DNA of 62,568 nt, counting the filler. It is 5 parts of 5 records of this genome, joined end to end, with 100 filler letters (N's around TTAATTAATTAA, not from the genome) between each part and the next. Parts side by side here need not be neighbours in the genome. Positions count along the whole stretch, not along the records: positions 54,262 to 62,568 come from DRR378314_1502; 4 more parts are not named here. One strand, given 5' to 3'. Position 1 is the stretch's first letter. Each line of letters opens with the position of its first letter. The position numbers were made by a program, and so were the translations under genes. Under the pieces are notes generated by a model that worked only from the letters and a program-made list of their open reading frames with translations, searched no databases and was not told the origin of the DNA. Shown in pieces: positions 12,109 through 62,568 of the stretch.

Positions 12109-12208
12109 NNNNNNNNNNNNNNNNNNNNNNNNNNNNNNNNNNNNNNNNNNNNTTAATTAATTAANNNNNNNNNNNNNNNNNNNNNNNNNNNNNNNNNNNN
12201 NNNNNNNN
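12109..12208. other. Assembly gap with artificial TTAATTAATTAA linker
   Basis: 100-nt N run with a central TTAATTAATTAA (stops in all six frames), identical at all four gaps. Confidence 0.97.
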
Positions 12209-19800: not shown

Positions 19801-22800
19801 CAAGTACATCTTGGCAGACTCTACAGGTCCTCGGATAAGGATGTGTCCATTTTCTTGTTCAACTGAGCGCAAACATGCTCTACAGGCAGCAATTCTCTCC
19901 CTGGATTGGTACACACCATGTCCACAGAAATGCTCGTCAGCTGCTTTTCATACATTGCCCGTAGGGTTGCCAGCTGTTCTTCAGATTCCCTTTTCCTGTG
20001 CCGTACGCAAAACGAGAACCTTTTTTCCTTAAGTAAGACATTGTTGGCGCACGATGAGATCGAACTCATGTCAAATACCCAAGTGCCCATTCCCACGGCA
20101 ACGCCACTATCGTAAAGGGCGCGGGAGCTTGCGCCCTCATAAGCATGCCGTAGCAGGATTCCTGTACGCGCGCGCGCACAGTGTAGCCTTTGCCAAACTC
20201 ACCGCATTCCAGCGTTCATAGAAATAGCACGTTTTGTAGCCATGAATTTTTGCAAGAGTATTCCCGTATTGCAAACACTAGGTATGCAAATGTGAAGCAA
20301 AGAAGTTGTAATGATTGTGGCATCTGCGCCGGAGAAAGTGGGAATCACAGCCCTGGCGTACGTACATGGAGGCCACTGTGTCTTGAAATTCAGCAGCTCT
20401 TTCTTCCATGGCTCTTTGGAGTTCTTTGTGCTCCTGTTTGCGTTCATTCTCTGCCTGAGCAATCCGCGCTTCTGCTCTCTTGCGTTCTTCTTCCGCATGC
20501 GCTGTCGCGGCGTCGCGCTCCTGTCGTAGGGAAGCGAGCTCAGCGTCCAGCCGCCTTACTTCATCGCCCTCGCGCGCTTGGAATTGATCTGCTGAGACCC
20601 TCAGGCTGGTGTTTTCAGTTGTTAGCGCAGCTATCCTTGTTTCCAGCACCCGAATCTGCTGGTCCCACTCTGGTCTTGCAACAGCGTCTCGCTGTGAGTT
20701 CAAGAGGTCGTTGCGCATTTGCGCATTCTGCTCACGTAAATCTGCCAAGTCTTGCTGCACGCTCGACAGGCGCTCCATCAGACTTTCAGTCCCCAGCCAC
20801 TCTGCGCGCAATTTGTCTTGCACAACTGCCTGCGAGGTGACCTTTTCGCGTATATCTGCAGTGTCATCGATCATAAAGGAACATACGTTCGCGTAAGGGC
20901 ATATGCGGTGCCTATATGGACTTCGGATGGATGAGCTCCTGACAGGGCTTAGCGTTAGGGTCGTTGCTCTACCCGTTCCAGTGACACATGGAGCACCCCC
21001 CCCATCCTCTTCCGAACGAGAATGTGTAAAACCGCTTCAATCCTGCGTATCTCTCCCGTTCCTGCGGCGCGATGAGTTTACCCCTTCGAGCAGGGACTGG
21101 TTCGCAAAAACCTATACACATGCAGCGAAGTCTCTCGCATCCTTTCCCGCTGCCGCCCCACGCCAAGCACAGGGCGGAAGTGATGGAGACAGTACATGAC
21201 GCAAAAGCGGTCTCCTCCGCCACCCGCGTACGTACGCTCGAGTTCGCCAAGAAGCTTCGCTGAATCGTCTGAAGTTGCTGTTGGGTGTAACTTGAGCGAA
21301 TTGATTTGATCACGAAGCTCTACCAGCTGCGCGCGAATTCCTTCAATTTCCTGGACATTCGCGGCACTGCACACGCCATTTGTCCGGAGCAACGGCGAGT
21401 GTCAAGTCGAGTCACGCCATTTCGCTCTCAGCGAAATCAATCTGACGCCCGTTCTATTGGTGCGTTTGTTCTCTCTGGGTATGTTTGTTTTGAGAGCATA
21501 GTAGCCAGGACTATGATGGACTTGCGCGGAAAACTCAGAAAGGTGCTGTTGGCACGGCGATAAGTTTCTCTGCCTTGGCTGCAAAATCACCGTAGTTTCC
21601 GGTAGAAGTCGCAAATCGGCGGTACGACATACCGCTGCGATACTTCGGACCTCTCCGTAAGCTCGTCAGTATGAACATTTATCGAAGAAGGCATCTCACG
21701 CGCATGCGCAGGATCTCGTAGTCTGGCACATCACATTGTGGCGGTCGCCCGTATGGTACATGATCACCGAAGGGAACATGGAAGTCAGACGGGTCTACCG
21801 CATAGTCGTGGTGGGAGCAGCCCATGCGCTAGTTGCTCCACCGCAGAAATGAAGCTCGAATATTTCTCGCTCTGTGATCAAGCATGTCACCTCATATCTC
21901 ACTCCTCTCCATCTCTTTTGTTGCTGTGCGCCTGCACGCATATTCTCTGTTAACGATATGTGATATGGCGCCAGCCGCATGTACGACAAGTGCTGTGCAT
22001 ATTGCAACACACCCTGATGAGCCTGCAACAACGATCTCCTGAGGCCGATCCCTTCCCTTTGCCTGCATGCGCACCGGAGTGGTGCGAGTATTGAGAACGA
22101 TCCGTTAGCGCACGCCTGTACGATGAGATACGTACATCTCGCAAGAATGCTGATTGCATTGCTTGGCCCAGGGGTGTACGTCCAGTGTTACACAAGCAGG
22201 CAGTGTCCCCTGTCGATCGTGGGATGTACACACGAGCACGACGTTTGGAAGAGCATTTCCCGCGCAGCTTGTCCAACTCGCGCCTGTCCAGGAGAAGAAA
22301 TACGTCGTGCGCATTTCACCATCTAATAGAACGACAGCAGAAACATAGCGGAACGTTTATGACACGCAGCAGCTGGTACCTCCACAATCTTTGGGGAATA
22401 CGTACCAGTATTTCGTACTTGTTCGCAAGTTTCTTCTGTGCTCGAAGCTCCTTACGGAGGAATCCAATTTCCGTTTTCTGATTGCGCAGCGCAGTGGCTG
22501 CGCGTGCAAGATGACGACGAATCTCTTCACACTCGGATCGCTTTTTCTTGCGCTCGCGGAGAAGCACTGTCTGTGCGTGTAGAAGGTACTCGACCATTGT
22601 CTGCGCAAGCAAAACGAAGCTGAACATGTCTCGGGGTGAAATATTCGTCATGTCTGTAAGCGACAGGGGCGAAAAACACACAGATGCGAAATGTATGCCA
22701 AAGCCCAGATCAACCAGTTCCGTCAAGTTTCCTTTAGGCGTACAAGAAAGCGAAGGTGAGATCGTTTCGGCGTTACACTGCTACGGATAGTTGTGTCCAC

Positions 22801-27637: not shown

Positions 27638-30600
27638 ATGCCGTCCGATACACAGGCACTCCTGGCACCGTCGCCGCTGCGGCGCCTTGGCGGGTGGCTT
27701 GCTCTTGCTGGGATGTTTGTCGCTATTCTTTTCGTTAACGTATCGTGCTTATTTGGTCAGATATTCATACTGCCTTTTTCTCGCAAGCGTTATCACCGCT
27801 GGGCTAACCGTGTAGTTCAGGTGTACACTGCGGGAACGTTCTGTTGGCTTGTGGAAAGGTGCGATCGCAGTGCTGTTGCTGCTGCTGCTCTTTGCAAAGG
27901 CTGTATTGCTGCCAGGCTGAGAACTGCCGTGTTTGCGTATATAGCAAATGTAGCGGACCGTATATTGAACCTTTCGTTTGTCGCATATTCTCGCATATTT
28001 GCTCTCCGTATCATTGCGCCGTTATTGGCCTCTGATTTTGCATCCGACTTCTATTGTGCAACTTCTACGAATTTCTCCGACGTGCAGTCTCTCCGGCCTT
28101 CGGCTCGAGCTGAGGACACACAATCTCGTGCTCGACAAGCCTATCTTTACCATTCTTGTACGTAGAAAATACACACCCTCGTATAGTGCAGACGCATGCG
28201 TCTCTTTGCTCCATGTGTGGCATTTTCCCGCAAGTGCTCGATGGCCGGCGAGCGGGAGCAATGCTGTGCTGAGATCTTCCCTAGTACCGTCTGAGCGCAC
28301 TGCTTTCTGCGGTGGCGCTTCCCGCACTCTGCGGCACTGCTCGCGAACGTGGTCTTTCTTTCCGTGCGTTGTGAGGGCAACGGACGTCCTGTTCCTAACC
28401 CACCGGTGATTGTCATCGCGTTGCGTATGCGAAAAATGAAGATCGCAAACCATGTTTCTTCGCTCGACTTTATGGTGCTGTACTGGGTTGCGGCCAAGCT
28501 CGGCTGTCCGGGCTCGCTGCGCTATCTGGCGAAGGAGTCGCTCAAGTACATCCCGCTCTTCGGGTGGGGTATGGCCCAGGTATGCCCAGAGGACAAGCGA
28601 GGCGGCACCCGCGACGTGCTCTTGCAACATTGAGATAGCTAGTTCACCGACAGACGCTTCCGCCGCGTGCTGTATGGTTCCATGGCCCTATAGCTTGAGC
28701 GAATGCGTAGCTTCTGCCGCGGCGTGCGCCTTGTCGCTACACGCCAGAGGCTGCTGCTCGTGCTGCTTTGCGCGGCAGCGCAAGGCTTCGGGCGGAAGTG
28801 CACGAGCGTGCGTAGCCTTGGCTGGAGCAGCACAAGCTCCTTTTTTACAGTGTATCCCGAACTCCCCGCTTGTACGGCCGGTAGCTTCGTTTCATTTTTA
28901 TGTATCCTCATGCGCGTACTTTTGACGCATGATTGTGAGAACTATGCCACGAGAGGCGAGCTGCATCTTGCTCGTTCGGAAGAGCAAGGCAGCGCCAGGC
29001 GAAGCCGCACTGCGTCGTCTGCGCCAAGCTCAGAAATGCTGTTCGGCAGAGTACCGCCAGCGCAGGAGCCGCTCAATGTCGTTGGCCGAGGAGAACAGGG
29101 CAGACCATGAGCGCGCTTACATGATTTCGGTTCCTTATTTTGATACGCGGTATGCGCATCGTTCGATGCAGGTCGAAATGATCTTCCTCAAGCGTCGATG
29201 GGATCAAGATGCGCCCCGAATCCGCGCTGGGCTTGAGCGGCTGCACTTGTTGCAGGAAGATCTTATTATTGCGATTTTCCCCGAGGGAACACGTGCAAAC
29301 GCCAAGTCGATTGCGGTACGCTAGGTTCAGAGATCTTCCATATCAGCTAGCAGCTGCACACTTGAATTATGGGTGATCTGGTATTCAAAACCGCCTGGGC
29401 TGGGCGAATCGTGGAAGCGGTGAAGGTGGTGAAGGACTTTTGTTGTGCGGCATTGGCGTTTGCGGTTGTAGCCATTCTACTCTGCATTGGAAACCGGCAC
29501 GCGCAAGGCTGCCGTTGTGTTAGATGTGCACGACGGTCCGTGCATGGGGTACCCAATGTCACATGTTTTGCGCAGCGGTCTTGTGGCGGCATAAGCGTGT
29601 TCGTTTGCTCGGAAGTAGGCGTTTCAAAGCATGTGCTCTCGGACGACGAAGCTAGGCTCTTATCCGCTTCTCACTTTGGTCCTCGGCTGCTACTGTGGGG
29701 TTTCTGCAGGCTGGGCAAGAGTTTGCACGCTCTCGGAATCTCACGCCGCTGAAACATCTTCTTTGCCCACGAGTGAAGGTATGCTTTGCTCTCAAGTTCG
29801 GTTCGGAATCTCGAAAAAAAATTGGGGGGGAGACAGGCTTCTCGTTTGTTCCTCTTGTGGGAGCGGAATGAGACAAAGTCGGTGCAGCGTGCGGCTGATG
29901 ACTACATATTTTCGGACCACCCGAAAGCACAGCACTCTGAAAGTGATTTCGTACATACTCAACGATTAGGACGTTTCGTTTTTCTTGACCAGTTGTTTTC
30001 GGAGACCCCCTCTCCTGTTTTGTCACGTCGATACCTACGTATGAGGAACCAGTGTATTCTCGGGAGGCATCAATTTGGTTGTTCTCCATGTGTTTCGTTT
30101 TGTGGCTGCGGAATAGCAGCTGGCATAGTGCGCGCGCGCAGCCAACCTTTATTCTATTCTTCAAGCCTCTGGATATTTATTCTCAATTGCGATATAAGTG
30201 TACATGATGGCGTGTTGCGCACGTGCTTTTTTTTGGTTTACCTTGCGGGGTAGGGGTTCGCGGCGCTCGTCCGCGGCATTGCCGGATGCTCGTCGGAGTC
30301 GATCCTTGACGTCACGTACACGTACGATGGGGCTGCGCCGTCCATCGTTAGCGCTGCCACAGGCAAAGCGAGTGGCCAGCGCGCGATCGTGCATGTGCGG
30401 CAAATCCCCATCCGCCCGCTGCAGAATCTCGATGACGCTGAACTGACAAAGGTACTGTTGCGATACACATGGGCGCGTTTGGGCGATTGGTGTCCTGCGC
30501 GGAGGAGCAGGGCGGGGCAACGAATTTCTTGCGATGCTCTGGAGCCTATGCCTGTGGGCTCTGTTGGGCCTCATTGTGCTCCTGTTGCGCGCGAGCTCGC

Positions 30601-33547: not shown

Positions 33548-33647
33548 NNNNNNNNNNNNNNNNNNNNNNNNNNNNNNNNNNNNNNNNNNNNTTAATTAAT
33601 TAANNNNNNNNNNNNNNNNNNNNNNNNNNNNNNNNNNNNNNNNNNNN
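33548..33647. other. Assembly gap with artificial TTAATTAATTAA linker
   Basis: Same 100-nt N/linker block. Confidence 0.97.
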
Positions 33648-37224: not shown

Positions 37225-40200
37225 ATGCGTGTCAGAACTCTTTCTTGCATTCTCCTGCTTTACATCTTCGCAACAGGCACGGAAGGTGCTACAACAGCGG
37301 AAGGTACATGGGAAAGCTTCTGCACCTTGGTGCTTGCTGCGAAGTCGAGTGCTGCTCGCCCTGTGGCTTTTCATGACGCATCAGTTCTTTTTTCTTGCCT
37401 GTCTACACTCGCCAAGTTGAGGTTTCGTGAATTGGAACGGTTACAGAGTACTATCTCCTTGGATTGTGCCACGGATAGTGCAAGTGCTCCGCGCAGAGCT
37501 CATAAGTAGGGGCATGTCATTCACAGCTGAGGTTCGAGTTGCAAGCGTCGACTGGTGGCCAACTCCGTCATATGCACGGAAGTAGCGCGCTTATGCGAAG
37601 AAAGGGTCACATGGAGAATGACTCCATCGCTCGCGCCTTGGACCTCCTGTTTCTCCCTCGCTTCTACAGAAAAAATACCTGCCTCTTAGCGTGTGCACGA
37701 TAAAGAAAGAAGAAGCTCGATATGCTTGGCCAGCATCCTTTTCTTGAGCCGCAGCAACGGAAGGAAATTATCGAGTATAGGGACTTTGACTGTGACGGGA
37801 GTACTGGCACAACGTTGTTTCCTTGTCCTCGGAATATTTCCAAATCGCAATGTAGCTATGTGGAAGCAGAGAATACGTCTCTACCACAACATCGCCCCCC
37901 TGAGCCCAGTAACTTTCGTTCGCCCATGCCCTGACGCTTTGAACATTTGGTAATTTACGCTCTTTCCGCTGTATTCCCCAAAGCGCAAACACTCCAGTCA
38001 TTGTACAATTCGCTTCAAGGCGAAAAGTGGATTGACAAGGCAGGGTGGACGGAGCCCACTTCGGACCCTTGCGGGTGGTACGGCGTCACGTGCGACGCGA
38101 ACGGCAGCGTGACGGAGCTGTACGTTTTCTGCCAAGGCAATGCGGCATTGCGAAAAATAGGAGCGCCGCATTTTCTTTTTCCAGTCCAGACTGCAACAGA
38201 CCTCTCAGTGGCTGTGCTTCAACGATCTTCTCGCTCGTGTTAAGCATTCCGAAGGGCAAGCGTTCGGGACAGAAAGACTTGGTTTCTCCCGTGCTCCAAA
38301 TCAAACCCGAGTTGCTTGAAGCTGTTTTCTCCGTGTCGATGAAAGCCTGCTGAGCACTGTGGCATGCACGGAGCTGCCATTGTACCAACTAGCCCAAACC
38401 CTCTGCTGTTGTGATAGAGAGGAGCGACTGTATCGTTTCTTGACGATTCTCGCTACAAACGAAGGTTTCTCAGCACATGCGCTGTTCTTCCCGCTGGGCC
38501 CACCGGAACCAGAGCGGACGTCGAGCCGTCTCCAGTTTCAGAACACGTAGGCAGTCGCAAGCGTTTGGACGATGCATCCTTCTCCCCTGAATACTGTGTC
38601 TCGCATTATACAAAGCTTCATGCTTGCTACATTGATTAAGAATCTTATTTTGCTTGGAACCTCACACTTTCTGTTGCAGAGATCTTCGCGGCAACAATCT
38701 GCAGGGAGTATTGCCAAGCCTGAAAGGACTTGCAAACCTGCAGGCAATGTACGTCCAATGATAATTAAGATTTTGTGCACTCACTTGTCGACAAATCATC
38801 AGATCCTTGTACAGTCGCATGCAAAAAAACGAATTGCAGACCTTTCAAGCGCTTTCATATGTAACACACGGCCTCCGAATTGCCATCTCCATACCCTGAA
38901 CTAAATGAGAATCTGCTGTTTTCCCGCTCCACAGGGACATAAGTTGGAATCACGTGTCTGGTGCATTCGAGGATGATGTCTTCTCACACATGCCAGCGCT
39001 TGTATCGCTTCAAATCGCGAGCAATGACCTTTCTGGGTAAGCGGTCGGTTTACACCCTTTTGGTGTCCGTTGAACGAGAAAGCAACGACTTACCCGCAGC
39101 AGCATGTATCGGGTGGTAGTTTTAGGTACCGAGCGCAGGAACGTAGGAAAGAGAACTTGCAACGCGCATCCCTTTGCAAATTCTCTCCTCGAAACTACGT
39201 GCTGCGTGGCGCTGCGGAATTCTTAACCCTTCTTCTTTGTATTGATCGTTGTGCAATTCTCGTTGCTTTCCTATTTTTTTGCATCATATAGAAATATTCC
39301 CTCGTCTCTATGCATGCCAGAGCAGCTGACGTTTGTGGACTTGTCCAACAACGACTTTACCGGCGCCCTTCCACAGTGTAATGCACAGCAGTGGAAAAAC
39401 ATTCGCGTCTTCCACTGCGCCAGTGAGAATCTCTTCGACGAGAATGCGCTCAGCAAATTTGCACAGTACGTTCCTTCTAGCGCGACATATTACTCTTAGG
39501 ATAGGTGTGGGTGGTGTAATGCAAATGAGTTGCCAATACACGCCTCTCGGCTTGGCTTGGTCATAGAAACAGCGAGCAGACAAAGAGTCGTTGAGTCAGA
39601 GAATGCTGTTCGAGGTGGTTGGGCGTCGAAGAGTATGGTATACCACAACTTTGTCGCTTTGCCTTGATGCGATTCCTTCATCAAATTCCGTCCTATTTTG
39701 TACACGTTTCTCCACATAATGGACTCTCCACGCTTTCTTGGTAAGGAAGATGGGCTTCTTTGCGGTCACGGTGGAGTCGTACAGTCTTCCAAATCTTCGC
39801 TTTGGAGTACAAATAAGCTAGTGGCTCTCACATTCGACGCGTCCCATGTCCGCTAGTGGATAACTTACGTGAGTGCGATAACGCGGATCAGATCCTTGCA
39901 GATATATGCATATCCTTACTTGAGATAGTGCTTCATGTTTCATCTCTATCCTCCACCCACATTTTCATTCCTTGTTCTGGCTGTCTTCGCAGGTGCACCA
40001 ACCTGATCTCGCTGGGGCTCGCAGGCGTTCGCACCGGCGGAGGCACTCTGGCCCCCCTGGGCGGCTTCACGAGCACGAACTTGTCGCATTTGGACTTGGT
40101 GAATATGGAACTACAGGGAAACATCGAGCCATGTATGTTGGATAGAAGTGCACATGACTGGATTCCGTAGTGAACTGCTGCTCGAAAATCCCCTTGTTCG

Positions 40201-42339
40201 TGCCACTCTCCGATGCTGCACATCCAAAACGGAGTATTCGGTCGCTCTTGTGAACCACGGACGGTTGGGCACTGTACCTCTCGGGGATAGGATTACTCAC
40301 CCGCACTCTCGTTCGTTGTTACGTTCACTTCAGTAAAACGCTTCCGCGACCTTGAAGCGATCAAGTTGGCGTCAAACCGATTCACAGGGCCCCTTCTTGC
40401 CGGAACGGTATGGTTTCTACCTTGCGCAGAGTAGCACTACACGGACCGGCGCATAAACACTCAGAGAGCAGCGGCATTTGGTATTCTGTATGATCGAAGA
40501 TCACGACTCTCATCATTATGGATCGCGATATCTATCTTACATCAACCATATAATGATGCAATGCAGTTCAGCGGGGCAGTCTTTCCCAGTTTGGTTGTGC
40601 TTGACCTGCGAGAAAACCAGTGGTCGGGGAGCCTACCTGAAGATATTGGCACGCTGTCGAAACTCACCACTCTCGACTTGTCCGACAACCGATTCTCCGG
40701 CCCCGTACCAGCCTCGTTTGCGCAACTCACTCTAAAACGGTGCGCTTCCTTATTCGAAAGAAAAGGTATTCAGGAATGCACAGTTTCAATGCTCTGCGCT
40801 GTCTGACTGGCTAATGCGTATAGCGTACACGTTGCTCCGCACACCGCTTCAATGCGTGTCAGCACCTTCAATTCCTCGTTCCGCGCGCAACGTGCTTCTC
40901 TGCGACATCTGAAATGCCTTGCATTGAAAAAAGCCTCTATGTGCAAAATAACCAATTGACAAGTCTGCCGGAGAATCTTCAAGTCTCATTTGCGGCAAGT
41001 ACATCGGGAAACAATTTCTATTGTCCGGTTCCACAAGAGGGTCCACTGCAGAGTACGCAATGCCGCTGCAAAGGTGAGGAGGCACGCCACAAAACGATGT
41101 AACACCAGACGTCGCGGACAATTCGTTGCACTGTAGTTGCTTCGCTACAAGTCTTCGAAAATACGAAAGATGATGGTAGTACGATCGTATGATGTCACGG
41201 GCGCGCGAAAAAACCATGTCCATGGATCTCTGCTGTTCTTTTTTTGTTGTTGTTGGGGGTACAGCGCTCAACATAAAGAGCGCACAGCGTACGAATTCCC
41301 GATTAGCTCTTGTGCGTGGACTTATCAAGAACAATCCACTGTGCATGTACTCGTTCGTCCTTCCCATACACACAGTCACATGAACCTAAATTTCTCATAT
41401 TATGTTTATATATCATTGCTTCTACTGGAAAATGTCCGGCATAACAGCTGGTTACGAGCCCTCAGGACGCAACTCGTGCCAAGTGTGCAGCGCCGGGCAC
41501 ATTTCCGACGGCACGACAGGCTGCAGGACGTGCGGGTTGAACGAAGGTACGTCACCTGTAGACTGGGTCATCGACAAGTGAACGCGAATGCTTGTGATTC
41601 CATATCACATTGTTTGTTCTTGTGGGAGCGGAGGGCTGGATAACTTGGAGTGGAGTGGACAGTTCCTGCAGACTCGCAGTCCTTCCCAAGACACACGCTA
41701 CGTAGTTGAGATGCGCTGGAGTCTAGGCGCAATGCCCGTGACTTGCAGAGATTCTACTTCATCTGTCTTCCTTCTCTCTCCCTAGGATTTGTAAGGAACC
41801 CACTTGCTCGCGAGTGCTAACGACGTTTTTCGCTGTGTCAATTTTGTGGCTTGCATTGCACGTGGCATGCGAACATCCAGTGAGCGAACAAGGCTCGTCG
41901 ACGTGCATCCCGTGCGGCACTTTCTTCGCACCAGCATCCGATAGAACCACGTGCGTGGTCCCGCTGTTGATGGTTCTTTTCATCATCACCACGATCATAT
42001 CTCTTGGTCTCATTATCACGCTTATAGTGCTCTTCAAGACAAAGAGGATTCGTGCAGACATAAAGAGCAAATACGGTACGCAGGATCATTCATTTGCGAG
42101 CGACTAACATTCGAACACGTCCGGAGGACCGGGTCGAAACTCGCTGACCCTCACTCGCTTCTCTGGCAACGAACAGCTTGATGAAATGGCCCAGCAAGTG
42201 CGTAGCGTGGAGAAAAGATCAAAATTATTTTGACAGCGTTCATTTTGCTGACATAGAACCACTTTGATACTCTACATTTGTAACCTGCGTTACAGAAATC
42301 AAACTACGCAAAGATGGTCAAAACTCAACCCTTCTGTAA
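37225..42339 (+). CDS. Single-pass LRR receptor-like protein: signal peptide, plant-type LRRNT cap, LxxLxLxxNxLxG repeats, CxxC-rich stalk, TM helix, short tail; about 12 exons
   Basis: MRVRTLSCILLLYIFATG; LQSLYNSLQGEKW...DPCGWYGVTC; DLRGNNLQGVLP; LDLRENQWSGSLPEDIGTLSKLTTLDLSDNRFSGPVP; CQVCSAG, CIPCGTF; TM LLMVLFIITTIISLGLIITLIVLF then KTKR. Last exon and stop less certain. Confidence 0.85.
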
Positions 42340-48140: not shown

Positions 48141-48240
48141 NNNNNNNNNNNNNNNNNNNNNNNNNNNNNNNNNNNNNNNNNNNNTTAATTAATTAANNNN
48201 NNNNNNNNNNNNNNNNNNNNNNNNNNNNNNNNNNNNNNNN
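48141..48240. other. Assembly gap with artificial TTAATTAATTAA linker
   Basis: Same 100-nt N/linker block. Confidence 0.97.
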
Positions 48241-48308: not shown

Positions 48309-51300
48309 TCATTCTCGGAATTCGCTGTGATGAAAATAGCATCTCTGGCAAGCCAGCGGATGCGCGTTCCGCTATGGAGGCTCTTCGGAGGCAGCAGGAT
48401 TCCCTCGAGTTTGACCCGTCGAGCGTCCCATCACTGACGGAGGTGCAGAAAATGGCCAAGGAATACCTGGACGTGAGTTTACTTTCTTCCGCCCTCGCTC
48501 CCTCGGATTCCTTTTTCCTGCATAGGATGAGCAAAACTATTCACCTGCGTTACGTTCTTGATGTTACGTGTGCGTGCACTGTCGAATCTTCATATATACA
48601 GGCGATTAAGAAGACGGAAATGTCGGAAACTGCTCGCGGAATCGTGAACCGTTGCGCAGCCACCCTTGAGGAGCTTGTGAGCGGAAAAGACGCGGAAGGA
48701 GTGTACAATGATCTCACAGCAGCACCTCGCGGTACGCTGCTCACCCTTCACATACTAAACATATGCGCCACAGCTCTGGAATGGGGAAACACGATCGCTT
48801 TTGTCTTCACGGTATTGCTCAGAATAGAGGTCGACATTGTCCTGGATTTGTGCACGTTTGTCAGAGCAACATGAATGTTGGTTTGACGTTGAAGAGTCAC
48901 TTTGTAACCGTTACGTATCTGACCTCTCCGCAACTGCGTGAATCTTCATTCCCATAGGACGTAGTGCCGCAGCATTGTAGTCATGTGTCGTAAGGCGATA
49001 AGAAACGCGTGAGTTACATGATGAACAGTGGGAAAGTACCTGCCGAGCTGGCATGGTCGCGCCCTACTAGCTGCTCCCCTGCAAGGTGTCGCTGCGGTGC
49101 CGCACTGCAATACGCGTATTTCTCACGCACATCGGTAACGGGTGGCACTGGTTGTTTTCGATTATCTTCAAAGGTCGCCGTATGCTGGTGAGCCTGTTTC
49201 GCTCGGAGCGCACGGCGGAGGCGCTTCTGCGCAGTCCAGAGGCCGAGGCGCTGTACGGACGCGGACGCGAGCTGGTTGACGGATTTTCGAGCACACGCGA
49301 AGGCCGCGAGCTCATGAGCAAAGTACGTGGGCGGACATGCGCGATGCTGTGTGGAATTTCGGAAAGTTTTGTCGCAGTTCCCCGTTGCCTTTGCATACGC
49401 TGGGATGTAGCATCGAGGGCCGGATTTGCCGTATCGCTGTGGTTCTGTGGCTAACATAACAGACCGCGACTCCGAATCGCGGTCTGTTACCCTGAAACGC
49501 ATTGCGACGCACAAACACTCCTGTCAAAGTTAGGAAATGGTATGTAGAGAGTCAGACGTGCGCGTGCGCTCGCTACAGCGAGCGAGCGGCACTCGTTGGA
49601 TGAAAAGGGCACTGCGCGTTTCTGCGACAGAGCTTCGAGTGTGCACGCGCCATTGCTCATGATTCGGCAGCTCCTATGCGACCCGCCGCCAACAAACTGA
49701 ATATCTCCGGTCGTTTTCTCACTGCGTTTGCTACTGTATTGCTCGGTGTTCGACCAGGGCGAGCGCATTGTGAACGATCTGATGAAATTCGAGACCGGAC
49801 GGACGGCGATTGAGTCTACGGGACAAGTGCTGAACAATGTGTTGGATGGGAAATCGGGTGCGCGCGCGGCGCACCGGCCGCGCTGAAATCGCGTCAAAGT
49901 GTTTCCCCTTCCGTGTAAATAATTAGCTTCCTATTCCTGTGCACTAAGACGCGCGTGTTCCTCTGCGCCTTGCTCACCTGGGAAGATCCTGTGCGCGCGT
50001 GCTCCGCCGCTGCGACAACAGACCAGAGCGAGTTGCTGGAGCACTCGAAAAACGTGTTGCGCAACCTACAGTCGGACAAAGACGGACGTCGCATTATTTT
50101 GCGCTCCCGCGTTCTTTTGGACGAAGTCTTGCAGTCTGCAGAGAGCAAGCGTGTGCTGGAAGAAGGTATTGGTGAGTATGCCGTCCATCTGCGCGCTTTG
50201 GCCACTGCGCGTGCGGCTGCTCTGCGTCGCTTCACAACGAATGCACCCGCGATTCGTGTTGCTTTTACCGCACGGACATTCGTTTGATGCTCAGTATGGG
50301 TGCGTTTTCACGCTGGCTCCGCGTTGTGGTAGGAACGGCGAACTCAATGGTTTCGTCGGAGCGCGCGGAAGCAGTAGCGCAGCTCGGCGCGGACATTCAG
50401 GGCGCCGCCGCCCAGTTCCTCCTTCAGTATGTCCCATCACTGAAGATCCAGGACGTGGAGGGCGAGCGCAAGGCAGCTGGAACAACTGTGGCATACAAAC
50501 TCAAGAATCTGGCCTTTTCGGAGTTCGATTTCCCGCCGGATAATGTACGGTTGTCGCTGCGTCGGCACTCGTGGCAGCGAAGTCTCTTGCCTCCACGCAG
50601 CGGGCTCTGTGTGTTCTCCCTGGCGACCTTTTGTCGTGCTCATTCTGTTTCTGTCCAGAAAAGGTCCACGTTCTGTGTACGAATTATGTCCGAGCTCTTT
50701 TTTTTGTACTACTGGCCAAATATCGTTTGGCTCGTCTTCAGCAATCTCGTTGTTATTTTTTATTCTTTTGTTGCAGCTGACAAGTGCCACATTGGCCGAG
50801 AGGCCAGCGCGTTCAGCGGCTGGTCCCTTTGCAGCGCGTAGTAGGGTTCCTTGTCGGGCGTAACCTGCGCACGCTCAGGCTGTATGCTCGTGCGCTTCTC
50901 GATGTGTATTGCATCGCACGGGTGCAGTGGATAGCGCTGTAAAAGTTTGCGGAATACTCATAATGCGGCAGAACTGCTTCTTGCGTTCGTCGCGGCTCAG
51001 TCTTTCCTCGTGAACTCGGGTTAGCCGTGATGCATTGGACTGTTTCTTAGCTAGGGCTTATCGAACTGGTTCCTCTCTTTCGATTCTCCAGGTTGCCGTT
51101 GCGCTGAGTCCGACCATCCGCGTCAATGTACACGACATTACCGCTTCCGTGCGGAACATGCACTTTGATTACGCGCAAAACGGGTTTCCTGGGCTAAAGG
51201 GTAATGGCACTGCGGACTGTCGCGTGACAGAAGCTTCGGTGTCAATCGAGCTGGAGCTCGTCGAGGTGCGCCATTCTGCAGGTGGCAAACGGAATAGCTC

Positions 51301-54161: not shown

Positions 54162-54261
54162 NNNNNNNNNNNNNNNNNNNNNNNNNNNNNNNNNNNNNNN
54201 NNNNNTTAATTAATTAANNNNNNNNNNNNNNNNNNNNNNNNNNNNNNNNNNNNNNNNNNNN
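54162..54261. other. Assembly gap with artificial TTAATTAATTAA linker
   Basis: Same 100-nt N/linker block. Confidence 0.97.
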
Positions 54262-54737
54262 CCTGTGCGTAAGCCAGTTTCTCCTCAGGTGCGTTTTTGC
54301 CGGCGCGCTACTGCTGCTGCTGCTACGTGCGTACGTCTACCCCGAAGCGCACTATCTACGCGAAGTTTGCGCGCGAGAGGGAGACGATTCGATTACTGCG
54401 AAGGAATATCTACCCTGTTCTTTGTGCTTGATGCGAGGCGAGATGGGTTGGACCTTTTCACATGGTTTGGGATTGCTGTGTGTGCCATAGTGTGGCCGCA
54501 AGCACCGTTCCTGTGCGCAGTGTTCGCCCGCGGTTGTCCGCGTCCATGCTGCGCTCGTGCGCATGCACTGGTGCAGGTTTAAGGTATGGGCAGGGATAAG
54601 CTTATCTCTGGCTTTGTGCAATTTTGAATTTGCGGAGCTTCTCGGTATTTGCGCCTCTTTTGATAGTTGAATCATTTCTGCCTTGCGTGCTTTCTGTCGC
54701 GCATTTTGTTTTTCTTTTCTGGGGACCGACCTTGCAG

Positions 54738-56678
54738 CCGCGCGCGCCTGAGCCAGTAAAGGAGCAGCCAGCTACGACGCAGGTGTACTCATGTGCGTTT
54801 TGGGTAAGACGACGTGCTTGTTATTGTCGTTGTCGCCGCATGCTATGGCGAGGGGAGGAGCCTCGTGCTATTTTCGTCGGCAAACGGGTTTGCAGGGCAT
54901 AGCGCGGGACAATGCAAATCGCGTGCGTTTCTTCCCCTTGCACAATGCCGCATCCCTCATGGCGCGAAATGGCTGCTCACGCTCTGCTATGATGCCTGAT
55001 GTAGCGGTCGGCACTGCGCTTGGCGAGCTCGAGAAGACGCGCAAACGGCCGAGCTCAGGTATGTAATCGATTGCGGGAGCCCGTGTGTTTCTATGCGTGC
55101 TCTCACTGTCCGTCCCGCTCGTGTTGTTGAGGATCTGAACTGCATCTGCTGCCCCTTCTGTGTTGGGCCCTGCTGTGCGCACGCGCTACGTGATGTTCCT
55201 TGCCTGGCGCTTCCGACCGCAGCACCGAAATCCAAATCCGTTCCCTTTTCGACACTTTTGGTGGCTTTTATACTTGGATCGTTGGTCGGCGGTGCGATAC
55301 TGCTTGCCGCGGACGAGTACCGTGGAGCTGGCGTGAGCATTCAAAATGTTCCGCGCCTGATTCTCGGCAACATCCGCGCGTCCGTAGACTCGTGCGTTGC
55401 GGCTTGCAAAGCGTACGTTCCCGCCGTTGCAAGGCGAACCGGTGTATTCGTGCGAATCGCCAGAGAAATTTCGTTTACACAGCATGGGAAAGGAGGATGG
55501 GCATCGTTTGGGTGTCCGTTGTATTGCAACAAGGATGTGCTCTTTGGGATACGGTGGACTCTGCGTATGCGAGGGTTCTCGTGGTTCCGGTGTTCTCAGA
55601 AGAGTGCGCGAGGACCTGAACGCGGGCTGCATCCCGGTAGCAGCGTGGATCCCGTTCCCATGCAGGCGTTCTTTGCGGCCTTTGGGCGCTGATTGCGTGT
55701 GCGCAAAGAAAGATTGAGCGTGCGTGTTTCTCATCCTTCTTGCGATCTGGGGTTGGTTGAGTAACTGACGCGGTAATGCTTGATGTACTTTTCTTTCCGT
55801 CTATTGCAATGGGCGTGCTGGTTTTGGTGTTTGCCTCCTCTCTGTAGTGTGCTCGGGTTCGTGGCAGACACCGTGGACTGCATATTTTCATGGTTGCGCG
55901 CACTTTTCACTGGCAAGATTAACTACGAAACTATTGCAAGCACCGCGCATGATGTACGCGTGTTCATCTCAACATCGGCATGCGAAATGAAAGCCACTGC
56001 CGCCAGCCGTCTATCACGGCTGCGGACAGACCTGGTCGGGAAGGTGCGATAAATGCGAAGCGCGAAGCGTTTCGTCCGATAGCGCACGGCAGCTGTTCGC
56101 GAAAAACAGCAGGGATTCTCTGCTTGGTAGTAGAGCGAGTTGTGAGATGGCGTGCACAAAAAGAGAAAACACAAAACCGACACATGATGCGCGGCGAGGT
56201 GCTGGAGAGATTTATTGAAGTTGTACGCGCAGCCGATATACTCTGTGTGCTTTCTTCCTATGGATGGTCCGTGCACCCTGTGTGGCGTTGTACATGGGCG
56301 GAGCTGCTCGGCTTGTTTGTGTTGATGATAAGAGTCTGCCCGCGTGCGATTCACTGAGGGGGAGGCTTAGGGATGATTCTGGCGTCTCTCTTTTGCAGCG
56401 CTTACCGCTACGGCTGCTCAGCGTTTCGCGTCGCCTCGGAATGCGCTACGCGACGTGTGCGGGCCAGCCGAGGGCTATGCTGCGGCACGTCGGCCAGAAG
56501 CGTGCTTGGACCCAGCAGTGCGCGCTGGCTCTGTCCGCTTATTTGCTGCAATGTTCTTCTTTTTGCTGCGCTGTGGTTTCAGATGATTGAGCTTGTCCAT
56601 CGTTTCCACGGCGGCAACGTTCCTTCCCCTACACCGGCGTCGCCGTCAACGGAGAATGGAATCTTCTCGTGGTGGTAA
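54738..56678 (+). CDS. 3' part of an unknown membrane protein
   Basis: AG/GT-bounded exons PRAPEPVKEQPATTQ; GTALGELEKTRKRPSS; TM FSTLLVAFILGSLVGGAILLAA; VLGFVADTVDCIFSWLRALFTGK; MIELVHRFHGG...GIFSWW*. Confidence 0.5.
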
Positions 56679-57309
56679 CGGCGAATATATGATGCTACCT
56701 CTGCTGCGCCGATGCGCATGCGAGGGAGGCATCACTGCAGCCGGCGCCCGGGGGTCCCGCGGCTGGGCATGCGGATTGATATGTCTTGTAGAGAAGCTGT
56801 GCCGTCCAACTGTTGCCGTTAGCGGCCGATCGGGGGATTCGCACGACATGCGTGAGAAGGTTCATGTCGCGCGCGAAATCCGCGCCTTGGTCTATGGCGT
56901 TTTCAGCGGAAGCTTGGTTCGCGCAGCGCGACGGTTCCGCCCTGCTGCCAGCGCGCCGTGTGTTTGCGCGCGTTACTTTGTGTAAGTGTACAGTTTTGCG
57001 CAACTTGGTGTGTTCTCGAGAGTTGTTGCCGTGCTGTCTGCGTTTGCGCGTTCATGCAATGGAGGGTATGACTGGCGAAGGAGGGCGAGTGTGTGCACCC
57101 CCTTGCCCGTGTGTGGCAAAGCGAACGGAGAAAGCGTGGGCAAAGTACGTAATAAAACCTACAAAGCGGCGGGAGATGCAGCCCCGTGCGCGCGCGCGCA
57201 AGAACCCAACGCTATGCGAGCGACGGGCATCGTAGTGACACTTTCGACCATGCATTGAATTGGCACGGGGATCCGCAAGACTCGTGGCGGCGCCCGATAG
57301 TATGGTACT

Positions 57310-58462
57310 CTAGCTGGCGTTGCGATCCACCGCGTCGTCAAACGCAGCAAGCATCGCTTCACCAACGCCCTTGAGATTCGTGAGCCCCCTGACGACCGCC
57401 TCAGATGCCGGCTCGCCTACACCATCAGTTCATCAAGCACCCACCCATGCCGTGAATGAGATGACTCGTTATGCATAACGTATTGAACGGAAGTGACCAG
57501 CGCAGACCTCGGGCGGGGAAAAGGACGCCTACCGCACCCTACACCACAACGTTGAGCGCGCTGTTGCCTATGGGCAGCTGGAGCGCACCTCGCGTCTGGA
57601 CGACCACGTTCATCTTCGTTTCCAGCGGATGAGGAACTGAGTATCCAACAAATTTTACTCCGCGGCTGCAGAATTAGCGTATCGTACAGGTCCATACATA
57701 GACAAGAACCTGTTCAGCATCAATCGCGAAGGAAAACGAAACGAAACGGGGGTGCAACGCGCAAACGAGGCCAACGGTGCGTCGCCGTGGAAGCGGTGCA
57801 ACGCAAGGCTGCTCCGCTTCGCGTGCGCCCGCTCGTGCGAGCGTCTTCCACAGCAACGTACTCTCGCGCCATTAGATGCCGAAGCGTGTTGCCCAGGGTG
57901 TGGTCTTCGTTGTGAAAGACGATGGTTTGATTCGCAGGGTCGTCGCCCACCTGCGAAACGGTGATGCATCCAGGCAAGGGAGAAGAAAAGAAAAAAAAAA
58001 CCATCAAAGAAGTCCGCGTCGCGAGGGCGGTGAGAACTGCGGCAACTCTCGTGCGAGCGAGCCCGCAGCGCGTTGCAAGCCCATAATTCGCCCGATCTCA
58101 TGCGTTTGCAAACGGATACATAGGTGAAAATTATTCTGGATTTGCTATCGCGTTATCGGCTTCCATATTTGGATGGGTGCAGCAACCGGAACTGTGCAAG
58201 GCTAGCGCGCAAAACACACGACCGCAGCTGCCAACGTGGCAGACCGCTAGAAACGCGCTCACGTCGCTTCGCGATTTTTTTTTTTCACACAAAAACAAAC
58301 TTGGAGCAAACGCGACGCAACGGCGCGCCGGCGCGATATGGCAGAGAACTGGGTCACACTGACAAGAAATGCTACGAGTGCTGCTGATTACTCTCCTTGC
58401 GTCGACTAGTCACCGTGGCGTACAATTTCGACGGCAGCTTCGCCAGACTGCGACTGCGCCAT
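57310..58462 (-). CDS. POLR1D: RNA polymerase I/III shared subunit RPAC2 (AC19). Exons 58462-58424, 57950-57862, 57665-57589, 57416-57310
   Basis: TIVFHNEDHTLGNTLRHLMARDRGVKFVGYSVPHPLETKMNVVVQT, the RPB11/RPC19 signature of the GYSxPHP type. Confidence 0.92.
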
Positions 58463-59465
58463 TGCAAGAGCGCGTGCCCTGAGGAGGCACGACGAAATGC
58501 GACTTCGACACCGCGCGGCTGTGGCGCTGTCGAGCGCGCTTCCGTTTCGCGCTAGGGTTATGTTTACAACCCAAGCACTCCGCTTTCTGGTATCCCGTTT
58601 GTGCTGCCCAACGCCGGGGTTGCCGATGGCACTTTGCATAGCTCGGCCGACGTATCATGCCAATATGCTTCTCGCTTGGTGCAGAAGTGTAGATATATCA
58701 ATACGGATAACCTCATGCGATATAAGGAACGAGCTCGGCTGGACAGGGTGAGGAAGGATCTCCGCACGTACAGGGCAGGAAAATCGTGGACGCGCGATGA
58801 GCTGTAGCGCGCGCCGGCCGTATCGGAGTCCTTGTGGGTGCGGTGCACCGGCCTGCGTTTTTGCTACGTAGGGAATAGGGGTGTGGTGAAAAGACATACC
58901 AGCAATCATAGTAATAATGTTATGATGTGCGCTTGGTCAGGAACACGGTTACACGTGCTGCAGTAGAATGAGAAACGCCGCTCAGCCAAGCGGCGAGAGG
59001 GAAGCATGTTGCCTTTTGCAACGCTGCCATAACTGCCCTGCATGTGCTCCTCTTCGAATGCGATTGCCGCCATCGCCCCATCGTTGTGCAGCCATTTCCT
59101 CGTGAAGCATTGCTCCCCGGTAACTGAATCGAACGCAGTTGCTCCAGAACATTCGAGCGACCCCGAAAGGCCAGTCTGATAGCGCAACTGTTTGCGGTAC
59201 ACGGAGCTGTCCCCGAGTTGGCTTTGTAACGCTGCAGCGGCTGGCGAGGACTGTTCCACATGTGCTTGGGAGGTAGGGCTACGAGGGAGGAATCAATTTG
59301 AAAACTATTTACTGGAGGAACTGTATAGCGTACATGTCATATGATCACTACGGTGTGCTGCCGCTCCCTTTGCGCTGTCGCTGCTTTCTTCCCCCTCGCA
59401 GCGCAGCGTGTTGTGTCGCGCCACGCAGCGGAGTTGCACTTGGCCGCGTGCCGTGCCCGACAAAG

Positions 59466-62061
59466 ATGGCGTCCCGTGCTCAAGCATGGCTGAAATCGCT
59501 CACATCGGACTCGCGATCGATAATTGATATTAGTGAGGCGGTGTTCCGTGCTCCCATTCGGGTGTGTTTTGCGGCACATGGTCCGCCGTGGCTCCCCTTT
59601 TTGTGCGCTGGTGTAGGTTACTGTGTCACTCCGCGCCGCTGCAGCCTGTCTGCTGTCCTGCTGTTGCTCGCACGCCGCGCGCGCGGGGGGGATTTTTTTA
59701 TGACCGAGACCCTATGTAATCTTGCAGGGTATTTTTATTTTGTACTATATTTGGGCTATGTAGCAGAGATTGCGGCCCATACGCCAAGGGGAACGCCAAC
59801 TTTCTCGCGGTGGGATACAGCGACGTCGGTGCTGTGCGCGGCTCGTGCTGGCGCGCGTGCTGCTCGTGCGAACCGCCTCGCGCCGCATGTACTCTTCGCC
59901 TCTTGCTCGAGCTGTGCAGCAGATTGCACGCAACGAGAGATTTAAGTTCTACACATCCGTGCATTGAATTTTTGACGAGCCAGGGTGCAGCGCCTGTGAT
60001 GTTATTTTTTTTTCTCTCGCTTCGCGACTGTAACACCGTGGGCCAAGCTGCGTCCGGTTGCTCCTACTGTGATCTTCCCCACTTCCGTACTCTGCGCCCC
60101 GCAACGCAGCCGGACCTCATCCACCGCGTAGTTGTGTGGCAGCTTGCGAAGCGCCGCCAAGGAACTGCCAAGGCTCTTACACGAGGAGAGGTACGCGATT
60201 CTCGTGGGGCTGTCAGCGCGCAAGCATTGGCAAGGCCGTGCAAGTGGAAGGCTCGAGCGGCGCAACGCGAGTCTGCTGCTTCCGGTGCTTTTTCCGTGCG
60301 CTGCCCGCAGTTTCTGCGCCGGCACGCCTGCCGAGGTGTAGCGCACGAGCTGATGAAAACGATTGTTTCTCTGACCTGCCGCGCCCTCTAATGAAAGTGA
60401 ATCCGCTGCTGTTTTCTTCCCATAGGTGAGTGGAACGACGAAGAAAATGTATCGCCAGAAGGGTACCGGGCGTGCACGCCACGGCGCCAAGACTGCTCCG
60501 ATTTTCGTGGGTGGCGGCAAGGCGCACGGACCGCGCCCGACCCCCGGCCTCGGCTACCGGTACGTTGTTTCGCGGCGGGAAGAGCTGCGTCTCGTCTGCC
60601 GTCGATGGGCCAAATGGCAATCCTTTATAGCAGGAGCAAACTCGTATACAGTCATGAATGGGACGACTGAACGTAAGAAATGATCTCCTATTGCGCTGAA
60701 TCCGGTGCATTGAGCTCGTTGCAAAACATCCACTGGGGCACGGGGACGGGCGCGTTTTGCGTGCAGAGGAGCGGCAGTCGGGTGCTTTCTCAGCGCTTGC
60801 CCTCCTTCTACAGCTTGTATGTGCGTCAGTTACCCTCTTGCTGCTTGCTCTCTTTTCGTCTCTTCCTTTTCCCCGTCTCGGCCTCACACTGCGTCCCTTG
60901 TCAATCCTTCTTTGATTTGCGCGGAATCCAGTGACTGGTCGTTTAGCCTGCCCAAAAAGGTCCGCGCTGCTGGCCTGCGCGCTGCGCTGTCCGCCAAGTT
61001 CGACGCTGGTGCGCTACATTTCGTAGACTCTCTCTCATTCGACTCGCCAAAGACGCGGTATGTGCTCAGCCCTGTGGATCGCAGCACATTCCACCTATCG
61101 CAGAGTCTTTTCCGGCTGTTGTGCAGTTTGACAAAGCGAGTGAGCATGCGTATTTGTGCCATTTGGTGCTCCGTGGCAGGCGCGTGCGGGCTGCAGTGCT
61201 GCAGCTATGGTCTGAACGCGATACTGCACGGGCTTGAAGCGCGTGGGGTGAGGACGAGTTTGGAACTGCTCATGGAAGTGATACAGCCATAGTGTTCGTA
61301 TGGCAGCGTGTGACCTTGTTTTGTGAAGCCTTGATCTGATGTGTGTTCCCCCGTTCGTTCTGAATCGTGCGTGCGACATTTTGTCCCAGCGACCTTGCCG
61401 ACGTTTTGGCGGAGCGGAAGTGGGAGTCTGCCCTGATTCTTGCCGATACTGACGAAGATTGCGCAGACACATTTTTGCAAGCATCGAGCAATCTGCCCTT
61501 TGTTCAGGTGATGGAGAAAGAAGGGGCGAACGGTGCGTTGCGCTTCTGTAAGACCGATGTTGTCGTGCCTAGAGCGTAATCACTGTGCGCGCAGTCGTGG
61601 TGCCAAATCATGTGCGCGGCGGCCTCGCGTTGCTTGCTGTGCGTGGGGATGCGGGAATGTGAGAATGCGCGAGCCGGAATGGGTGGGGCAGTTCCCTAGT
61701 GATGTGCTTCTAGGCTCCTTTGGAGGGGCCATGCGGGAAAACGTGGCGTGTTTACGCTTGTTCTGCACCGAGAAGGGTTGGCTGTGTTGCGACAGCGAAG
61801 CTGTTAGTTGCGACGAGCGATACGGGGAGGGAGGGGATCACGCCGCAGGGGCGAGTGCTGCTCTTTGTGATAGCTGCAAGAGTGCTCATGGCTACCTTCA
61901 AAGCGCAGCAAGCGACATTCCACTTTTCTAACATGCGGCTGTGCGGGAATGCTTGAATGTTTGTGCGCGTTATGATTCGTGCAGTGTACGACATTCTCCG
62001 CAGTCGCAACGTTCTCGTGACGAAGTCCGCGCTGGAGTATTTGGAGAATCGCCTTGGGTAG
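59466..62061 (+). CDS. MRPL4: Bacterial-type ribosomal protein uL4, most likely mitochondrial. Exons 59466-59561, 60110-60190, 60426-60559, 60932-61057, 61390-61532, 61985-62061
   Basis: [85 protein letters not shown]. Confidence 0.93.
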
Positions 62062-62568
62062 GGATGTTGCTCTCTATTGTTCTTGAAATACATGTATGGA
62101 ACCGCCCCGCCCGCAACTGCGACGCTCCCCACCGAGATCACAAACAGCATACACCGCAAAAGCGCATGTTAGACGAGCAAGGGTACAGCGGGTGTGGGTA
62201 AAACGCTCGCCGATGTCGCTGGTGCCAGTGGAGGTCTGCCGAACCGGGTTAGGTGCAGCTTGCTGCGAAATCGACGTTACGCGACAAATGCCGCGGCGAT
62301 CCGCTCTCCTTGCCCGGCGAAGGGCCTACACGCGGAAATGTAGCCCTTTGATCATTATTAAACCTACACACGCACGCACAATCGAGCAAGCGGGGCGCGG
62401 GAAGTGCAGGTAAGCGCCGATGAACCGAATCACGGAAGCAAGGGCACTAAGCACGGTGTCCCTCTGGATATGCACGTGCGCGTTGCAGCGCGCTGCCGAG
62501 GACTGCGCGCACAAGACCGACGCGCAGAGCAGTGTTGAAGAGCCGGCCATCTCGTGGCGGTCCCGCAA

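Follow-up and report, generated by a model that had tools for sequence, protein, structure and literature searches.

The first intron in the coding region of an RPAC2/POLR1D-like gene, which lies on the minus strand of a 62,568-nucleotide stretch of protist DNA (the window, five parts of one genome joined end to end), has ends that are imperfect inverted complements of each other, with both arms of the repeat placed at the same distance from their respective splice sites. The placement is unusual; the repeat itself and the energy of the duplex that it can form are ordinary. An in-register match this good has a chance of about 1e-4 per intron, and the explanation tentatively preferred here, at somewhat less than even confidence, is that the arms are the decayed terminal inverted repeat of inserted DNA that created the intron. 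The intron, its arms and the short palindromes within them have the following positions.

57951..58423, minus strand: intron 1 of the coding region, 473 nucleotides (nt), GT..AG, phase 0 (from a contig join in the public run X1 and from exon frames and translation)
58395..58416, minus strand: 5' arm, intron positions +8 to +29, ACGGTGACTAGTCGACGCAAGG (from a repeat search)
57958..57979, minus strand: 3' arm, intron positions -29 to -8, CCTTGCCTGGATGCATCACCGT (from a repeat search)
58403-58410, minus strand: 8-nt palindrome GACTAGTC in the 5' arm, intron positions 13-20
57964-57971, minus strand: 8-nt palindrome GATGCATC in the 3' arm, in the mirrored place, positions 13-20

On the minus strand the intron opens with GTACGCC and closes with TTTCGCAG, and its start, GTACGCCACGGTGACTAGTCGACGCAAGGAGAG, aligns with the reverse complement of its 3' end, CTGCGAAACGGTGATGCATCCAGGCAAGGGAG; both of the strings quoted in the original prediction of a terminal inverted repeat are present in the sequence. 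The arms are 22 nt long and 73% complementary (16/22), contain exact blocks of 7 and 6, and are separated by 415 nt. Counted inward from each splice site, matches fall at positions 2, 4, 5, 8-14, 19-20, 22 and 24-29, those at 2, 4 and 5 being part of the splice consensus, and the arms occupy positions 8-29 from their own splice site at both ends, which bears out the claim that the repeat is in register. The six mismatches between the arms comprise 2 transitions and 4 transversions, and four of them are consecutive: the arms disagree over a 4-nt block that is palindromic in each arm, a feature that is unexplained. The exon flanks also correspond in register, with CGTCG at -10..-6 of exon 1 (58424-58435) and CGACG at +6..+10 of exon 2 (57939-57950). 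An extension of the helix into the exons was rejected, as the CGTCG/CGACG pair has a probability of 0.0 in the predicted fold.

In the controls on chance, matches were scored from position 8 onward only. Positions 1-7 were left out of the score because the splice consensus is itself partly self-complementary (G-T-R-Y-G versus C-T-G-C-R); with these positions included, one swapped pair of arms scores 9 against 10 for the target, by way of the GTGCGTT/AACGCAG consensus alone. A local in-register score of 10, as found for the target over positions 8-40, has a probability of 1.9e-4 among 2,000,000 random pairs in the window, and is reached by 2 of 25,610 pairs (7.8e-5) whose arms lie beside splice-like sites. 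The swapped-arm control named in the original prediction never reproduced the target match. No swapped pair reached a score of 10 among the arms of 13 confirmed introns (0/156, maximum 7) or of 22 introns (0/462, maximum 9), and over positions 8-30 the target has 16/23 matches against a maximum of 13 in 600 swapped pairs (0/600). Inverted repeats as such are common: the window contains 51 genuine pairs whose arms are 20 nt or longer and lie no more than 1.5 kb apart, in a search in which the target repeat is too weak to seed. Splice-like pairs with high in-register scores were also encountered at 57159-57861, 4565-5110, 38699-38869 and 49540-49670; their number matches chance, and they were set aside as unverified candidates.

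The intron that carries the repeat is an ordinary U2-type GT-AG intron removed by the spliceosome. The evidence comes from contigs of X1, the one public run found to contain this DNA, which accounts for 38% of the words sampled from the final 10 kb and whose "RNA?" label is a guess; the contigs were aligned to 54262-62568 only. Within these 8.3 kb they skip 13 intervals, every one of which has GT..AG borders in the gene sense when checked in the sequence. One contig joins 57948 to 58422, which with the cut shifted by 2 is an exact skip of 57951-58423 (CT..AC on the plus strand), so that the different splice sites which the original prediction named as a refutation did not turn up; the intron is real and spliced where it had been claimed to be. 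The interior of the intron is not covered by any contig, an observation given no weight here. Its splicing signals are the following.

58415..58426, minus strand: 5' splice site, ATT/GTACGCCAC (contig join; site score)
57950..57957, minus strand: 3' splice site, TTCGCAG/G (contig join; site score)
57976..58000, minus strand: polypyrimidine tract, with 20/20 pyrimidines in its best 20-nt stretch, the top value among the 13 introns
58003..58007, minus strand: branch-point-like TTGAT, a candidate by its motif, with its A 54 nt from the 3' end

The 5' splice site of the target has the lowest score of the 13 confirmed introns (a leave-one-out score of 3.7 over -3..+6, with the next lowest at 6.3), and the core of the 3' splice site is average (rank 8 of 13). 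An apparent weakness at both splice sites proved to be an artefact of score windows that overlapped the arms, and once the windows were restricted, weakness remained at the 5' site alone. The polypyrimidine tract runs at its 3' end into the 3' arm and has the innermost 4 nt of that arm in common with it. Downstream of TTGAT (A at -54) come the tract and then the first AG, which is the 3' splice site used, and of the 12 other confirmed introns, 7 carry a motif of the same class 51-75 nt before their 3' end. Over their final 80 nt, the 13 confirmed introns often have a YTRAY motif, in most cases TTGAT or CTGAT, 50-75 nt before the 3' splice site, and the pyrimidine tract tends to adjoin the YTRAY motif and to be followed by a spacer and then AG. 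To judge from these motifs, the branch-site layout of these introns looks unusually distant. Readings in terms of a small nucleolar RNA (snoRNA), a mirtron or a U12 intron were set aside in view of its length of 473 nt, the lack of an Rfam match, its conventional GT-AG consensus and the 7-nt single-stranded tails outside the stem.

In RNA structure predictions the arms form a terminal stem in both the minimum free energy (MFE) and the centroid folds of the intron, with predicted pair probabilities of 0.6-1.0 whether or not 39 nt of exon are included on each side. Across 22 positions the stem has 16 Watson-Crick pairs and one G:U pair, and the RNAfold structure contains further, shifted pairs, 2 on the outer side and 3 on the inner. 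A stem of about 30 base pairs had been proposed; the terminal stem itself is upheld by the fold and the ensemble, and its pairing amounts to about 20 base pairs, not 30. The GT and AG sites are predicted to remain unpaired and to lie side by side, 7 nt outside the stem. The folding stability of the whole intron is ordinary relative to shuffled sequences (z = -0.21). With register ignored, the duplex energy of the arms (-30.5 kcal/mol) is equalled by 1/156 and 23/462 swapped pairs.

One question raised by a single well-placed repeat is whether other introns of the genome have ends of the same kind. The original prediction called the target the cleanest example, and the remark fits what was found among 24 other verified introns, of which 12 were confirmed by contigs and 12 defined by homology through frame, residue count and splice score. 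The homology-defined set comprises 8 introns from an acyl-CoA dehydrogenase gene, 1 from a kinase gene, 2 from an adenosine deaminase gene and 1 from an acyltransferase gene; a Pfam search with 150 of 492 short reading frames in unannotated parts yielded one usable extra intron, and an ab initio intron finder was dropped when it recovered just 5 of 13 known introns. A weaker in-register signal of 11-12/23 matches over positions 8-30 is present in 4 of the 24 (56044-56582, 59562-60109, 3009-3202 and 8366-9071, all on the plus strand), two of them RNA-confirmed and two homology-defined. At least 11/23 matches are reached by 2.36% of 552 swapped pairs and by 1.35% of 960 comparisons in which the two ends of one intron are shifted out of register. 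Of 41 registers compared, the in-register one comes first or ties for first in these four introns and in no others. A permutation test on the count of introns with at least 11 matches gives P = 0.003, a value that is optimistic because the cut, at the mean plus two standard deviations, was set after the values had been seen. No excess occurs deeper in the introns, at positions 31-53 or 54-76. Introns 2 and 3 of the RPAC2/POLR1D-like gene, with 6/23 and 7/23 terminal matches, have no terminal complementarity. The signal does not extend to energy: duplex stability averages -20.55 kcal/mol for real arms versus -20.4 for swapped arms (permutation P 0.54), and G:U pairs at the mismatch positions of the five best introns (11/54) are not enriched over the 0.228 per position of swapped pairs.

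If the preferred explanation holds, the inserted DNA could have been a miniature inverted-repeat transposable element (MITE), an Introner-like element or another insertion with inverted-repeat ends. The arms would then be a relic of the insertion and not a selected product, the element would have supplied or recruited splice sites 7 nt outside the arms, and if the stem helps to bring the weak 5' site together with its 3' partner, it would do so as a by-product. A 5' site that is the weakest of 13 is as expected for a site that has not long been optimised. Moreover, strict complementarity in a fixed register, unaccompanied by a signature in energy or G:U pairs, fits an origin at the DNA level better than selection on RNA, from which the reverse would be predicted. 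Introns derived from transposons and ending in inverted repeats are on record elsewhere (PMC7789003; reviewed in PMC11282704).

The position of the intron in related genes bears on the same question. A strict back-translated motif pattern gave no metagenomic match; a looser pattern recovered 16 metagenomic loci, none of them a close relative or near enough for intron comparison, with an N-terminal region too variable for firm alignment. Half of these loci (8/16: L002, L003, L004, L007, L012, L013, L015 and L016) have an unbroken frame from ATG to the motif, with no intron at the corresponding place. In others, likely 3' splice sites lie upstream of EDHT by about 9.7 codons (L001 and L009), 0.7 codons (L005), 18 codons (L006 and L014) and 19 codons (L008), compared with 14 codons in the target gene, and L010 and L011 resemble L009 in their translated upstream frame. 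The intron position is not demonstrably shared with orthologues, and on this evidence it does not look like a widely shared old one, which counts in favour of an insertion. Among these loci, L001, L009, L010 and L011 are high in GC and have near-identical RPAC2-like exons, with a likely intron about 10 codons before EDHT in L001 and L009, and all four probably have another intron immediately behind the NPKV residues. Around the gene, the sequences of L006 and L014 are identical.

A number of results weigh against an insertion origin, and they concern copies, footprints and statistics alike. No third copy of the arm motif occurs in the 62,568 bases of the window at up to 2 mismatches, and a blastn comparison of the 13 confirmed introns with the window returned short low-complexity matches only and no intron family. 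There is no target-site duplication at the intron boundaries, where the direct repeat of 2 nt (GT) is ordinary against a range of 0-4 in 22 introns, nor is there anything convincing as a duplication beside the arms, where the spacers GTACGCC and TTCGCAG have just CGC in common, out of register; an old, short duplication could have decayed past recognition. No Pfam domain, transposase-like or other, was matched by 9 reading frames of the intron, and Rfam has no match in the window at the gathering threshold and none in 57300-58700 at E values up to 1. The pattern of mismatches between the arms is not that of simple decay. As for the other introns, the threshold-free Fisher-type statistic (P = 0.048) and a mean-based test (P = 0.09) are less favourable than the count whose cut was chosen late, and the five best introns have no arm sequence in common. 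When 64 strong 5' sites from the remainder of the window were scanned in a pairing-agnostic way, 9/64 had at least 11 matches, with no excess over the null of 15.6%, in a test that is low-powered because each 5' site has about nine candidate 3' sites. Finally, at some 100 introns per window, a figure extrapolated from 13 introns in 8.3 kb, chance alone would supply about 0.01-0.02 such introns per window, and several in a genome of tens of thousands of introns. Of the Introner-like origin originally suggested, then, the terminal inverted repeat in register stands, and the second arm copy, the intron family and the target-site duplication were not found in the 62.5-kb window; such an origin is plausible, not demonstrated.

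Many of the same observations are what would be seen if the target were an ordinary intron in which a complementary 7-mer and 6-mer happen to lie at equal offsets, picked as the best of about 100 introns. Coincidence of this kind is a live rival, though somewhat unlikely in our judgement, and it draws on the abundance of inverted repeats of this quality in the window, the swapped pairs that equal the duplex energy, the unremarkable z score of the fold, the expected number per window (larger still if near-register matches count), the lack of copies, duplication or family, and the 64-site scan. It has to contend with a per-intron probability of about 1e-4, with the absence of any swapped pair near the target in 600, with a register-specific signal in 4 of 24 independent introns (P 0.003 by count and 0.048 without a threshold), and with the target 5' site being the weakest of the 13 as well. 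That weak site is, in turn, the starting point for the view that the arms have been kept by selection as an RNA bridge, because the stem places a weak 5' splice site beside the 3' splice site; the target would then be comparable to the (AC)m-(GT)n bridged introns of fish or to yeast introns with zipper stems. The predicted fold has the geometry that a bridge calls for, with the stem in the MFE and centroid structures and the splice sites unpaired just outside it, and bridges that pair splice sites are documented, as excerpts of one report indicate (PMC4691745). Selection on RNA, also a live rival, is nonetheless somewhat unlikely here, marginally more so than coincidence: duplexes of real arms are no more stable than those of swapped arms, mismatch positions are not richer in G:U pairs, a 3' end with an average core and the best polypyrimidine tract of the 13 needs no help, and 473 nt is not long for the introns of this genome that were examined (median 355, maximum 706). 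An insertion relic and a selected bridge do not exclude each other.

The palindromes invite a further explanation, that GACTAGTC and GATGCATC are dyad-symmetric DNA motifs, a pair of sites at which a dimeric DNA-binding protein would attach close to the 5' end of the gene. Both stand at positions 13-20 of their own arm, and with 8-nt palindromes at 0.56% of window positions, a mirrored pair that differs just in its palindromic 4-nt core is unexpected. This idea is very improbable, as the observation was made post hoc, the window has no further occurrence of the combined arm motif, and the idea does not account for the two sites lying equally far from their splice sites. A broader conjecture takes the insertion reading beyond a single intron and supposes that about 1/5 of the canonical GT-AG introns of this protist carry unrelated in-register terminal inverted repeats left by a genome-wide, family-less gain of introns, which seems possible but somewhat unlikely. 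Such gain might proceed through many different elements with inverted-repeat ends, or through hairpin or fold-back repair, and its trace would be symmetric ends situated 7-25 nt inward of both splice sites. If it were true, the POLR1D intron would be the best-preserved example in the window and therefore probably the youngest.

The origin of new spliceosomal introns is an open question, and its clearest answers have come from genomes in which introns are marked by transposons. Among published accounts, the closest documented case is that of the inverted-repeat and direct-repeat (IR/DR) intron ends of Amoebophrya, where inverted repeats of 8-20 nt end 1% and 15% of canonical introns in two strains, and where the IR/DR elements, mostly in non-canonical introns and in repeated families, have direct repeats of 3-5 nt over the boundaries (PMC7789003). 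The likeness lies in inverted repeats at intron ends, which in Amoebophrya also mark a minority of canonical introns, often with no assignable family (PMC7789003). In contrast, the target repeat is 22 nt long, 73% complementary with no exact run longer than 7, and begins 7 nt in from GT and AG; the direct repeat at the intron boundaries measures 2 nt, as is ordinary here, the target repeat has no second copy in the window, and all 13 RNA-defined introns here are canonical and belong to no family. Introners of Micromonas, Aureococcus and others are MITE-like DNA transposons that create introns, present as many similar copies in unrelated genes, with a target-site duplication that usually supplies one splice site (PMC11282704; Introner families are treated by Gozashti et al. 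2022, PMC9860276). They resemble the target in being short and non-coding, with terminal inverted repeats and precise splicing, in their case as GT/GC-AG introns; the target differs in having neither similar copies nor a target-site duplication in the 62.5-kb window. Set against MITEs, likewise, it has the inverted repeat but no duplication and no copy in the window.

Two further systems are analogous in mechanism. In zebrafish (AC)m-(GT)n introns, which are abundant genome-wide, complementary repeats at the intron boundaries are predicted to bridge the splice sites and are experimentally needed, according to excerpts of Lin et al. 2016 (PMC4691745). The target shares with these introns complementary opposite ends that are predicted to juxtapose the splice sites, an analogy of mechanism only, and its arms are unique complex sequence, unlike dinucleotide repeats, with no energy excess across introns. 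In the nonconventional and intermediate introns of euglenids, positions +4..+6 pair with -8..-6, usually as CAG/CTG, and some of these introns have GT-AG borders (Milanowski et al. 2016, PMC4770533, in excerpt); a strong polypyrimidine tract is described in a review as missing from them (PMC11282704). Base pairing that joins the intron ends and the occasional GT-AG borders are points of similarity, whereas the target has CGC at +4..+6 and TTT at -8..-6, with no such pairing, a strong polypyrimidine tract and a conventional consensus. If the target and the weaker cases around it are marks of this kind, the present genome would represent a further lineage, one whose fully canonical introns retain inverted-repeat ends but fall into no recognisable families, and this would point to an insertion mechanism more general than the known Introner families. 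If the match is due to chance, the target is an ordinary intron, and a caution that one such case is expected per 50-100 windows of this kind. The interest of the case is moderate and comes mainly from the hint that the target is the clearest of several such introns.

The gene interrupted by the target intron has four exons, which join to encode a protein of 103 residues, and removal of 57951-58423 restores its reading frame. Besides intron 1, its parts include the following.

58424..58462, minus strand: coding part of exon 1, 39 nt, ATG and 12 codons (exon frames and translation)
57862..57950, minus strand: exon 2, 89 nt, which encodes the region of the EDHTLGN motif (contig joins, translation and Pfam)
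57666..57861, minus strand: intron 2 of the RPAC2/POLR1D-like gene, 196 nt (contig join)
57417..57588, minus strand: intron 3 of the RPAC2/POLR1D-like gene, 172 nt (contig join)

The Pfam family PF13656 (Rpb11/AC19 dimerisation domain) is matched by exon 2 (E 2.2e-5) and exon 3 (E 3.4e-8), and in searches of solved structures, with each of these exons searched alone, RPAC2 (POLR1D/AC19) chains are the top matches for both. The label POLR1D, which the gene had been given at the outset, agrees with these matches. The E values for RPAC2 versus Rpb11 are 8.6e-5 versus 2e-3 for one exon and 5.7e-4 versus 0.14 for the other, margins that are modest because the queries are single exons of 25-29 residues. 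On this sequence similarity the gene encodes an Rpb11/AC19-type subunit, for which the label RPAC2/POLR1D (AC19, of RNA polymerases I and III) is reasonable. The host is an unplaced protist, whose deaminase and kinase have best identities of just 36-53% within the protein collection searched: the top match of the adenosine deaminase is 36% (Acanthamoeba), and that of the OSR1/STE20-type kinase is about 50% (plants). Local protein identity reaches up to 76% for one conserved acyl-CoA dehydrogenase exon.

Other genes were recognised along the window.

317-4030, plus strand: short/branched-chain acyl-CoA dehydrogenase gene
about 8200-11000, plus strand: OSR1/STE20-type kinase gene
12286-14849, minus strand: adenosine deaminase-like gene
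22319-22780, minus strand: Dzip1-like N-terminal domain
28295-29321, plus strand: acyltransferase gene
37935-41578, plus strand: leucine-rich-repeat gene with a plant-type LRRNT_2 domain
59720-61289, plus strand: ribosomal L4 family gene

Four identical 100-base spacers, each consisting of 44 N, TTAATTAATTAA and 44 N, lie at 12109-12208, 33548-33647, 48141-48240 and 54162-54261. They look like artificial contig linkers that carry stops in all six frames, and if they are, the order and orientation of the contigs that they separate may be arbitrary; the target is on the last piece (54262 onward). In the acyl-CoA dehydrogenase gene, a 24-nt inverted repeat with 88% complementarity (2907-2930/3118-3141) brackets the exon at 2929-3008; the upstream intron has one arm at its 3' end, and the second arm lies within the downstream intron.

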